Under the pieces are notes generated by a model. It made no database searches. It saw only the letters and a program-made list of their open reading frames with translations, and had not been told where the DNA came from. A DNA stretch of 64,000 bases from Angelvirus px29 (Duplodnaviria; Heunggongvirae; Uroviricota; Caudoviricetes; Straboviridae): positions 75,520 to 139,519 of the IMG/VR virus record IMGVR_UViG_2700988902_000001; one strand, given 5' to 3'. Below are positions 61,473-64,000 of the stretch, in pieces. Made by a program: the position numbers and the translations under genes. The stretch's first letter is position 1. Every line of letters begins with the position of its first letter.

Positions 61473-62685
61473 GGAAATGAAACCAGTTGAACAACTGGAA
61501 AGAAAAGTTGTAAGTTTTGATATGCCACTCGATGTATTTGGCGAAGATGAAGCTGTTTACACTCAACAGCCGGATGGTGTTCTTGTAATTAAGGACGAAC
61601 GTGGCGAGAAAGTTGTTCGTACTCTGAAAGAATGCGTTTATTACAAGAGTCAACATGATGATCGCTGGTATCCGGAGTCGTATGACATTTATTCCGAGTT
61701 GAAGCGTATTCAGAAAATGAATCTACAAGGGAAAGACCCGAGCGACTTTAGAACATTTAAAGATCGCTTTAATAAAAGAACTCGATATCTAGGCATTCCT
61801 AATCTGAAACGCGCAAACGTCCCGACTAAATGGACTCGCGAAATGGTTGAAGAATGGAAACGTTGTCGTGATGATATCGTTTATTTCGCCGAGACTTATT
61901 GCTCCATTATTCATATTGACTGGGGTGTAATTAAGGTTCAATTGCGCGACTATCAAAAAGATATGTTGCGTATTATGGCAACCGAGCGCATGAGCATTCA
62001 TAACTTGCCTCGTCAGTTGGGCAAAACAACTGCGACCGCTATTTTCTTGACTCACTTTGTTGTGTTCAACGAAGCAAAAGCTGTTGGTGTTCTTGCTCAC
62101 AAGGGTGATATGTCAAAAGAAGTTCTGGAACGTACTAAACAGTCCATTGAACTGCTGCCAGACTTTCTACAGCCCGGTATTGTTGAGTGGAACAAGGGTA
62201 ACATCGAACTCGAAAACGGATGCTCCATAGGCGCTTACGCAAGCTCTCCCGACGCTGTTCGTGGTAACTCTTTCGCACTGATCTATCTTGACGAAGCGGC
62301 GTTTATTGAAAACTTTGATGATACATGGAAAGCAATTCTACCAGTTATTTCGTCTGGGCGTAAATCTCGTATTATTCTGACGTCAACTCCGAACGGGATT
62401 AATCACTGGTATGATCTGTGGGAAGTATCAATTAACTCTGATAAAGGGTTTAAACCATACACCACGACTTGGATTACCGTTAAAGAACGTCTGTATAACG
62501 GCGCTGATATGTATGATGATGGGTTTGAATGGTCAACCAAACAAATTAACTCGTCAAGTATCGAAGCGTTTCAACAAGAACACTGCTTGATTGGAACAAC
62601 TCGCGTCGATGTTATGATTGATAATCAAGAAAAGAATATGAGTGTGGAGGAACTGTGGAATACATACCGTTCACGTATCGCGTAA
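61456..62685 (+). CDS. 17: Terminase large subunit, N-terminal part plus 33-aa intein N-fragment
   Basis: [34 protein letters not shown]; ends QEH|CLIGTTRV...RIA*. Confidence 0.93.
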
Positions 62686-63680
62686 CAAACAAGACCGAGA
62701 ATAAGCATTATTATGGTGTGAAATACGCAATTAAAGACGCAAATCCATCGTGTTTGTGGTCTACATATTTCACAAGTAGCAAAGCAGTTCATGATTTAAT
62801 CGAGAAGTACGGCAAGGATGACTTTGACGTTGAAATACGAAAGACATTCAAAACTGCCGAGTCGGCTTTGATCTGTGAGTCCAAAGTAAATAAAAGAGTT
62901 TACAAATGGGATAACTATCTCAATGATTCATACTTTGATGTTGAGAAGCAGAAAGTGAAACATAATGGGATGAAAGGCAAAAAACACACAGAGGAAACGA
63001 TCAATAAAATCGTTTCTACTAGAAAAGCAAACAATAGTTATTCTGTGAAACGCTGTGGACTCTCGGAAGAAACCAAAAGGAAACAATCTATGAACAGAAA
63101 AGGGAAAACCCCGAGTCGTAACTGTATTAAAATCGACACTCAACATCTTGGCAAAATGTATTACGAAAACATCAACACATACGAATTGAAACGTTGTCCG
63201 AGAAGTGGAATGATGTCTCCTCCGGAGAGACAATTCAGTAACTGGTATCAGGAAACTCATGCTAAAGATTGCACCAAAATAGCGGTGCACAATGCGCTTA
63301 TCAAATGTCTGAAACGAAATAGCTTTGCTCCTCTTCCGACGTACAGCGAGAGTTCTATTAAGATCAAAACTCCTTCTGGATATAGAGCTATCGGCAGCAT
63401 TGAAAAGGTAAGTCATGACCGATACATCAAGTTTGAAATGAAAAATGGACTCACACTTGAGACAAGCGATAAACACATTTTCGTTCTTGTTCATCCAGTT
63501 ACCAAGATTCAGTATTGTTTGTATGCCGAAGATGTTGAGATTGGTATGCTTGTTCCTTTGGACGGTCAAGATATTGAAATAATCAATAAAGATGTAATAA
63601 ACGAGCGCATTGATTTATACGACATTCGGGACGTTGATGGTGGCAACATTTTCTATGCCAACGGAATTCTAACACATAAT
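62584..63680 (+). mobile_element. Intein (apparently split) in gp17
   Basis: C1 at 62584; HN at 63675-63680, followed by the C+1 nucleophile. Confidence 0.88.
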
Positions 63681-64000
63681 TGCTGCCGTTTCATGGGAAC
63701 GTCTGGTACTCTTATCAACGGATTTAAATTGTCTAAGATGGGGTGGACCGAGGTTATTCCAGATGATTGTTTCTATCAAATTGAGAGACCAATCGAAGGA
63801 CACAAATATGTTGCAACCGTTGACCCTGCCGAAGGTCGTGGACAAGATTATAGCACCATGCAAATAATCGATGTTACCGTTTATCCATATAAACAGGTTG
63901 CGGTGTATCATTCGAACAAGATTTCACCACTGCTATTGCCAAGCGTTATTATGAGATATTGTATGGAATATAATAATGCGTGGGTTTATATAGAGCTAAA
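62655..64000 (+). CDS. 17: GIY-YIG/NUMOD3 endonuclease fused to the intein C-fragment and the gp17 C-terminal extein (runs off the window)
   Basis: GGAGG + GTG 62655; FTY.V.N...K.YYG..Y, KKHTEET; intein blocks [26 protein letters not shown]|C; extein [22 protein letters not shown]. Confidence 0.88.

Follow-up and report, generated by a model that had tools for sequence, protein, structure and literature searches.

The window analysed here is a 64,000-nt stretch of Angelvirus px29 (IMG/VR record IMGVR_UViG_2700988902_000001), part of the 222,006-bp genome of a T4-like Aeromonas phage related to Aeh1. Towards its 3' end the large terminase gene terL (gp17), which encodes the DNA-packaging enzyme, is interrupted after the residues QEH by an element of 1,097 bp (62584-63680), a length not divisible by three, which contains intein and GIY-YIG nuclease sequences. 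DNA similarity to the gp17 genes of phages Aeh1, Ah1 and avDM12, which are intein-less and lack the inserted element, breaks off exactly at 62584/5. A tblastn search with Aeh1 gp17 against the whole 222-kb genome found only one terL locus, in two frames.

Layout of the interrupted terL locus

The first open reading frame (ORF1) is open from TTG 61441, has its likely start at ATG 61456, as in Aeh1 gp17, and stops at TAA 62683-62685. Its final 33 codons (62584-62682) open with CLIGTT, which is intein block A, and constitute the N-terminal intein fragment (IntN). ORF2 lies in the -1 frame relative to ORF1, is open from 62625, and carries a Shine-Dalgarno (SD) sequence, GGAGG, at 62646-62650, followed by GTG at 62655, 31 nt before the ORF1 stop. 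It runs for 599 codons without a stop, to 454 nt past the window end (window-equivalent 64454, read on the whole genome). It encodes, in order, a GIY-YIG domain, a NUMOD3 region, a helical nuclease C-terminal domain, a 10-residue linker, 108 intein residues ending in THN (the C-terminal fragment, IntC) and the Terminase_6C half of TerL from CCRFMG onwards. The codons of the intein end occupy 63678-63680, and the C-extein begins at 63681. Joined, the exteins (376 + 257 = 633 residues) have the length of Aeh1 gp17 and are colinear with it at ~90% identity without a gap; the junction is QEH-C-CRF in the joined exteins versus QEH-L-CRF in Aeh1.

61456-62583, + strand: terL N-extein, ATPase half, 376 codons from ATG 61456; Pfam Terminase_6N, E 1.2e-39; ~90% amino acid identity, colinear with Aeh1 gp17 residues 1-376
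62584-62685, + strand: IntN, 33 codons (CLIGTT...SRIA) and TAA 62683-62685; aligned to the opening strand-and-helix segment of the contiguous mini-inteins found at this TerL site
62646-62657, + strand: ORF2 translation start, with SD GGAGG, a 4-nt spacer and GTG 62655, within the conserved VEEL codons of IntN; same position in relatives
62655-62954, + strand: GIY-YIG catalytic domain, ORF2 residues 1-100; Pfam SegE_GIY-YIG over residues 2-77, E 1.6e-8
62976-63089, + strand: region of the NUMOD3 DNA-binding motif, residues 108-145; Pfam NUMOD3, E 8.4e-4, 19.7 bits against a cut-off of 20.4
63132-63326, + strand: endonuclease C-terminal helical domain, residues 160-224 (IDTQHLG...KRNSF); AlphaFold2 (AF2) predicted local distance difference test (pLDDT) 93-97, and conservation
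63327-63356, + strand: fusion linker of 10 residues, 225-234; no in-frame stop and no ATG, GTG or TTG between KRNSF and IKIKT, other two frames closed
63357-63680, + strand: IntC, 108 residues (235-342), with block B SDKH (His274), block F Asp323 and block G His341-Asn342; phmmer, AF2 and Foldseek
63681-64000, continuing 454 nt beyond the window, + strand: terL C-extein, nuclease half, 257 codons, beginning with the +1 Cys; Pfam Terminase_6C; ~90% amino acid identity with Aeh1 gp17 residues 375-633

An earlier reading of the sequence alone had described an ORF1 that ends after 33 intein residues and an overlapping frame, open from 62625, with GGAGG and GTG 62655; both were found as described. 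The domain order that it gave for ORF2 (GIY-YIG and NUMOD3, the rest of the intein, the gp17 C-extein) also stood, and this in-frame arrangement is kept in relatives. Only the start of IntC had to be moved slightly, to about residue 235 (IKIKTPSGY, 63357), after the 10-residue linker.

The authenticity of the frame break was assessed with Logan contigs from four separate studies (wastewater, food, surface), NCBI genomes and metagenomic relatives. Contigs of all four studies bridge both junctions without any indel (62379-63526 and other stretches). The cluster of ORF2 at 90% identity comprises six members of 599 aa, two of them from NCBI genomes, of 222,006 and 221,312 bp, and several from metagenomic contigs. 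Relative P0004, which is 61% identical over nuclease and IntC, has the identical layout in two unrelated samples: its IntN comprises 33 residues, its two ORFs overlap by 31 nt and the second is a single frame of 596 codons. Because the frames are kept in the contigs of four studies, in the second NCBI genome and in this 61%-identical relative, neither sequencing error nor frameshifting accounts for the split. A one-nucleotide error within 62620-62690, which the sequence-only reading had named as what would undo the split, is contradicted by the same contigs. That a sequencing or assembly error made the break is exceedingly improbable, since break and overlap also recur at eight other loci at 36-61% identity. 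The two-ORF split of terL is real. One wastewater contig (run X7) carries a 12-nt in-frame deletion at window position 63110, in the basic linker of the nuclease, a region in which P0004 is likewise shorter.

A split intein of the AceL/GOS/Cat-TerL family

The intein part was compared with 42 homologs, for residue conservation and for an AF2 model from which IntN was left out. The sequence-only reading had proposed an atypically split intein akin to AceL- and GOS-TerL, and the sizes (IntN 33 aa, IntC ~108 aa) and the top match by both sequence and fold bore this out. This match is chain B of PDB 6DSL, Cat, which was engineered as a consensus of AceL- and GOS-TerL, both atypically split inteins. 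By phmmer, IntC matched it over its full length (E 6.9e-9, identity ~28%). The modelled intein part (residues 236-342) had pLDDT >90, and its best Foldseek match was 6dsl_B (E 9.2e-8, template modelling score 0.71); all 36 Foldseek PDB matches at E<=0.001 were inteins or other HINT-fold domains (BIL, hedgehog). When IntN alone was searched against PDB with phmmer there was no match, the query being too short to inform.

The locus has the features of a class 1 intein: Cys1, block B His, block F Asp, terminal His-Asn, +1 Cys and the HINT fold. Cys1 (62584-62586) stands directly after QEH, where homology to Aeh1 ends, and in the 42 homologs H274, H341, N342 and C343 (the +1 Cys) show no variation, and D323 hardly any. 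It has likewise the features of an atypically split TerL intein, namely homology to that family, Terminase_6N and Terminase_6C exteins, pieces on separate polypeptides and a break after the first helix. The same TerL site is also occupied by contiguous mini-inteins of this family (e.g. P0062, P0020 and P0058). The window IntN spans the first strands and the ELW/ELY helix of these contiguous homologs, and IntC picks up at the next strand; this mapping places the break, and the nuclease, in a loop ~33 residues into the intein. The IntN ORFs of relatives end after 31-35 residues.

Homologous inteins were observed in two registers one codon apart, with the same extein length in both. In the window (62581-62586, 63678-63686), L005, L014 and three GenBank phages, Cys1 follows QEH directly, and the Cys after the terminal HN, the +1 residue, replaces the Leu of Aeh1. 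In L007, L009 and L013 one further residue stands between QEH and Cys1, and the native Cys serves as +1.

With a probability that we put at roughly 0.8, terL is here a fractured gene whose halves are joined by a naturally and atypically split class 1 intein of the AceL/GOS/Cat-TerL family, into whose N-proximal loop a GIY-YIG gene has been inserted that lost its own stop. Two polypeptides would be made from one late transcript, co-transcription being assumed: TerL-N(376)-IntN(33), and, from the SD and GTG inside the IntN codons, GIY-YIG nuclease(224)-linker(10)-IntC(108)-TerL-C(257). IntN would dock on IntC and complete the HINT fold, and protein trans-splicing via Cys1, the block B His, the block F Asp, the His-Asn end and Cys+1 would then yield a 633-aa TerL with the junction QEH-CCRF, together with IntN and a 342-residue nuclease-IntC protein. 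This by-product, or the unspliced precursor, may be the homing enzyme; it would cut element-less terL in mixed infections, and recombinational repair after cutting would spread intein and nuclease.

Translation start and alternative readings

Start regions were compared at nine loci, and the frame upstream of the start was inspected in seven of them. At 9/9 loci an SD sequence and a start codon lie at the first residues of the nuclease, the SD being encoded by the conserved (V/I/M)EEL codons of IntN (EQL in L009). The start codon follows the SD by 4-6 nt and is GTG in the window, ATG in most other loci and TTG in one. In six relatives the SD at this position reads GGAGG, GAGGA or, in L009, GGAGC, followed by ATG or TTG. 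Contigs from the four studies agree with the window over this start region. At the seven loci inspected, stops close the nuclease frame 12-42 nt upstream of the start, reading of the open stretches revealed no slippery heptamer, and no significant RNA structure that might hide the ORF2 ribosome-binding site or stimulate frameshifting was found (fold z -1.5). Because SD and start are conserved, stops lie upstream and neither a slippery site nor an RNA structure was detected, independent initiation of ORF2 is supported and programmed frameshifting is disfavoured. The sequence-only reading had held that an essential protein would need either trans-splicing or a -1 frameshift; the former is now favoured over the latter.

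A programmed -1 frameshift in the 31-nt overlap, for example at GAA-AAG (62629-62634), would give one contiguous precursor with a cis-splicing GIY-YIG intein. ORF2 does occupy the -1 frame, which opens at 62625, and an A-AAG stands inside the open stretch. Nevertheless, in addition to the start-region results above, among them closure of the nuclease frame 12-24 nt before its start in relatives, a shift at 62632 would lose the conserved VEEL helix of IntN, and we consider this reading very improbable. Less far-fetched, if still unlikely, is that no covalent splicing takes place at all, the intein pieces acting as a docking module and TerL as a two-chain enzyme whose halves are held non-covalently. 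The break falls between the ATPase and nuclease halves of TerL, and the NrdA of phage Aeh1, which is split by a homing endonuclease, is reported (PMC3045599) to assemble from its fragments without splicing, a case also taken up in the discussion of Dassa et al. 2009. Set against this are the full set of class 1 catalytic residues and their invariance across the 42 homologs, which would be unexpected of a mere docking module, and the trans-splicing reported in vitro for family members, the homologous AceL-, GOS- and Cat-TerL pairs (review PMC11766414).

It could also be that IntC-TerL-C is made mostly from an internal non-canonical start near 63340-63357, the nuclease being separate in practice and the open frame incidental. 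Five relatives with three ORFs start IntC separately, L009 has an ATG directly before IntC, and in the window a purine-rich GAGAG stands 4 nt before an in-frame ATT at 63357. However, in the ~15 codons between the KRNSF end of the nuclease and IntC there is no stop and no ATG, GTG or TTG in the window, L005 or L007, and the nearest upstream in-frame ATGs in the window lie ~50 codons before IntC. The frame also stays open in the 61%-identical relative, through the 12-nt in-frame deletion and through large in-frame deletions in P0008. Because the frame is kept open despite divergence and in-frame deletions, read-through from the nuclease start is argued to be selected, and we regard an internal start as improbable.

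Trans-splicing of a nuclease-IntC fusion remains the preferred reading, and several observations weigh against it. The ORF2 start of the window is GTG where relatives have ATG. The ATG of L009 means that the nuclease remnant there may not be translated with IntC. The 234-residue appendage N-terminal of IntC may slow the capture of IntN. The GIY-YIG core was poorly folded in the AF2 model (pLDDT 36-62, from a shallow alignment). Finally, TGT for Cys74 (62874-62876), beside the catalytic Glu, occurs only in this isolate, the codon being TGG, for Trp, in P0003, in every homolog and in contigs of three studies; because W74C adjoins the catalytic Glu, the nuclease of this isolate may be weakened.

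Scans for sigma-70 promoters and for terminators gave sites no more numerous than in shuffled sequence. The T4 late-promoter octamer TATAAATA is absent from both strands of the 64-kb window, where 2.7 copies are expected by chance, and ATAAATA was found downstream of terL only; for these reasons no internal promoter is claimed. The absence of TATAAATA is odd for a T4-like late-gene region, and the lineage may use a variant consensus. A 213-aa antisense ORF (62928-63569) was considered as a gene and dismissed because it is not conserved in L005, where the antisense ORF spans a different stretch. The divergence of the exteins beside the junction (74-81% nt identity) is not distinct from that of the rest of terL, and for that reason no co-conversion tract is claimed.

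Fusion of the nuclease to IntC, its relatives and its significance

The nuclease stop is missing, and the frame runs directly into IntC, in the window, L005/L006 (the 61%-identical relative), L007/L008 and L009. The five three-ORF loci are Providencia phage PSTRCR_127, Yersinia phage MHG19 and Serratia phage 92A1, all GenBank isolates, and the metagenomic L013 and L014. They encode TerL-N-IntN, a free-standing GIY-YIG gene of 231-244 residues and IntC-TerL-C; the ATG of IntC lies 11-14 nt before the nuclease stop, and the start of the nuclease gene overlaps the IntN ORF by 31-32 nt. They share with the fused loci the homologous intein, the GIY-YIG nuclease and the TerL site; what sets them apart is a stop of the nuclease gene and a separate ATG for IntC-TerL-C. 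The window thus agrees with a strictly defined fractured gene on the 5' side, where IntN has a stop and the nuclease an SD and start, and departs from it on the 3' side. A canonical bifunctional intein was ruled out by the two ORFs in different frames and by the position of the nuclease before block B.

The fused nucleases end in R(N/G)SF, followed in 3/4 by (A/I)PLP, and the free-standing nuclease of L013 belongs to the same subfamily. A tree of IntC and extein interleaves fused and three-ORF forms, and the fusion may have arisen once or several times, with the change running in either direction. When IMG/VR was scanned with an alignment of nuclease C-terminus and IntC, only the known contig (L015 = L007) and unrelated inteins, e.g. 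a helicase mini-intein in L019, were obtained; the fused GIY-YIG form is therefore rare in IMG/VR.

The positions TY...YYG, R62, E75 and N89 of the GIY-YIG domain are conserved (alignment A1), and the NUMOD3 match is stronger in relative P0008 (25 bits). The C-terminal helical domain matched no Pfam family; it is kept in all four fused relatives (alignment A3) and is homologous to the C-terminus of the free-standing nucleases. When the window was compared with L005, the proportion of nonsynonymous differences (pN) in the nuclease was 0.21-0.33 versus a saturated synonymous proportion (pS), and dN/dS was not computable because of this saturation. From pN against the saturated pS, and from the catalytic positions kept, the nuclease is probably under selection. 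Its activity and target are presumed. The patchy distribution of the element (absent from Aeh1, Ah1 and avDM12) would fit homing by cutting of element-less alleles.

The catalytic domain (residues 5-108) was ~50% identical by tblastn to free-standing genes annotated as 'hypothetical' in Aeromonas phages B614, AS4, avDM1, avDM2 and avDM5, and the terL-resident nucleases of enterobacterial phages were more distant (36-40% over nuclease and IntC). This pattern hints at an exchange of modules among homing endonucleases.

Two fused forms have decayed: P0008 (522 aa) has lost ~75 residues of the catalytic core in frame, and in P0043 (450 aa) the nuclease is reduced to its C-terminal domain. The changes in the fused forms, a small sample, leave the downstream frame intact, and decay that preserves the frame is as expected if TerL-C must be translated through the nuclease. 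TerL-C would be translatable only by way of the nuclease start codon and frame, so that only in-frame deletions would be allowed and the nuclease frame would be shielded from nonsense and frameshift decay; in so small a sample such a shielding effect is suggested by the deletions seen. We offer as a tentative proposal, on balance doubtful, that the fusion is a persistence strategy of the nuclease. The essential C-half of TerL would be tied to the ribosome-binding site and frame of the nuclease, making nonsense and frameshift mutations lethal, and nuclease-IntC and IntN would act as a two-piece bifunctional intein with the endonuclease in the N-proximal loop.

Other arrangements were observed at related loci. 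L012:1391-5103, on a 340-kb phage contig, carries a tandem pair of TerL-N-like ORFs, of which the second ends in an IntN of 27-28 residues. Overlapping it by 14 nt, a 700-aa ORF continues in a single frame through a probable Vsr-like nuclease of 334 residues, IntC and TerL-C; this suggests that the same fusion polarity arose with another nuclease family, the nuclease assignment being weak (DUF559, E 0.049). In the metagenomic representative P0133 (970 aa), TerL is contiguous and contains two inteins. In the second of them (residues 343-572), which lies at the Walker B region, a GIY-YIG core (Pfam SegE_GIY-YIG, E 1.3e-4) occupies the same N-proximal loop and is joined in frame at either end; this may be the fully healed end state.

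Canonical bifunctional inteins such as PI-SceI carry, between blocks B and F, a nested domain of the LAGLIDADG or HNH type. As in these, nuclease and HINT domain in the window would leave the host protein as one selfish unit after splicing. Unlike the window, they are encoded by one contiguous ORF and have the nuclease at the C-proximal 'C35' site (Beyer et al. 2019, PMC6801210); the window nuclease is of the GIY-YIG type, lies in the N-proximal loop ~33 residues in and is joined on one side only. Beyer et al. 2019 found all nested nuclease domains at one conserved site and argued that a symmetry-related N-proximal site should clash with the exteins. To judge from the length of IntN, the window nuclease probably sits at or near the latter, and its location bears on why nuclease domains sit at one place.

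The AceL-, GOS- and Cat-TerL inteins (PDB 6DSL; PMC11766414) are likewise class 1 (Cys1/Cys+1) with a T4-type TerL host, and their fragments are of similar size (IntN 25-37 aa versus 33, IntC 104-115 aa versus 108 in the window). They were described as IntN/IntC pairs from metagenomes, whereas the IntC of the window bears a complete 224-residue GIY-YIG nuclease N-terminally, in complete NCBI phage genomes. The fractured genes of Dassa et al. 2009 (PMC2677866) contain free-standing GIY-YIG or Vsr-like nucleases and include a GOS gp17-like terminase locus with an unusually long IntC of 122 residues; AceL NrdHF is another such gene, with a free-standing GIY-YIG gene. They share with the window a split intein invaded by a homing-endonuclease gene, overlapping coding junctions and a phage DNA-metabolism host gene. 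They differ in that their nuclease is a separate ORF and their IntC has its own ATG; the window has kept the 5' flank and lacks the 3' flank. In step IIIa of their model, loss of the flanks of the nuclease gene could bring the nuclease in frame, and a similar argument was made for actinophage inteins in the preprint of Gosselin et al. 2025.

The sequence-only reading had called the in-frame GIY-YIG unusual. A GIY-YIG gene inside a split intein as such is already known (Dassa et al. 2009); no description of the loss of the nuclease stop and the IntC start, and with it of a single nuclease-IntC-TerL-C polypeptide, was found in the literature searched. The locus looks like a half-way stage in the building of free nuclease genes into inteins, and would be a natural example of a step proposed and not shown in this form, in which a free-standing homing-endonuclease gene is drawn into the intein frame (Dassa 2009 step IIIa; Gosselin et al. 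2025). A series of forms is available at one TerL site (contiguous mini-intein, three-gene, half-fused and decayed fused remnants), with the fully nested form at another TerL site. Two complete NCBI Aeromonas-phage genomes carry the element, and relatives were isolated on Providencia, Yersinia and Serratia, so that laboratory tests of splicing, of homing and of what the fusion costs are probably feasible. The new split intein, with a 33-residue IntN and from a phage found in wastewater and food metagenomes, joins a family used for protein labelling. Relatives in GenBank are annotated as hypothetical proteins or as two terminases, and recognising the layout improves their annotation.

Further interruptions of terL were seen in two of the fused relatives. 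At L005:1967-2228, and equally in L006, terL-N is also interrupted in its Walker A codons (between NLPR and QLGKTT) by ~300 nt that match Rfam group I intron RF00028 from end to end (37.3 bits, E 5.4e-8, under the gathering score of 50) and contain no ORF. At L009:718-3023 the N-half of terL is in two pieces of 238 and 232 aa, both matching Terminase_6N, so that terL there is in three pieces. Between the N-half pieces, and overlapping both, lies a 305-aa DUF723 ORF that looks like another inserted mobile gene.

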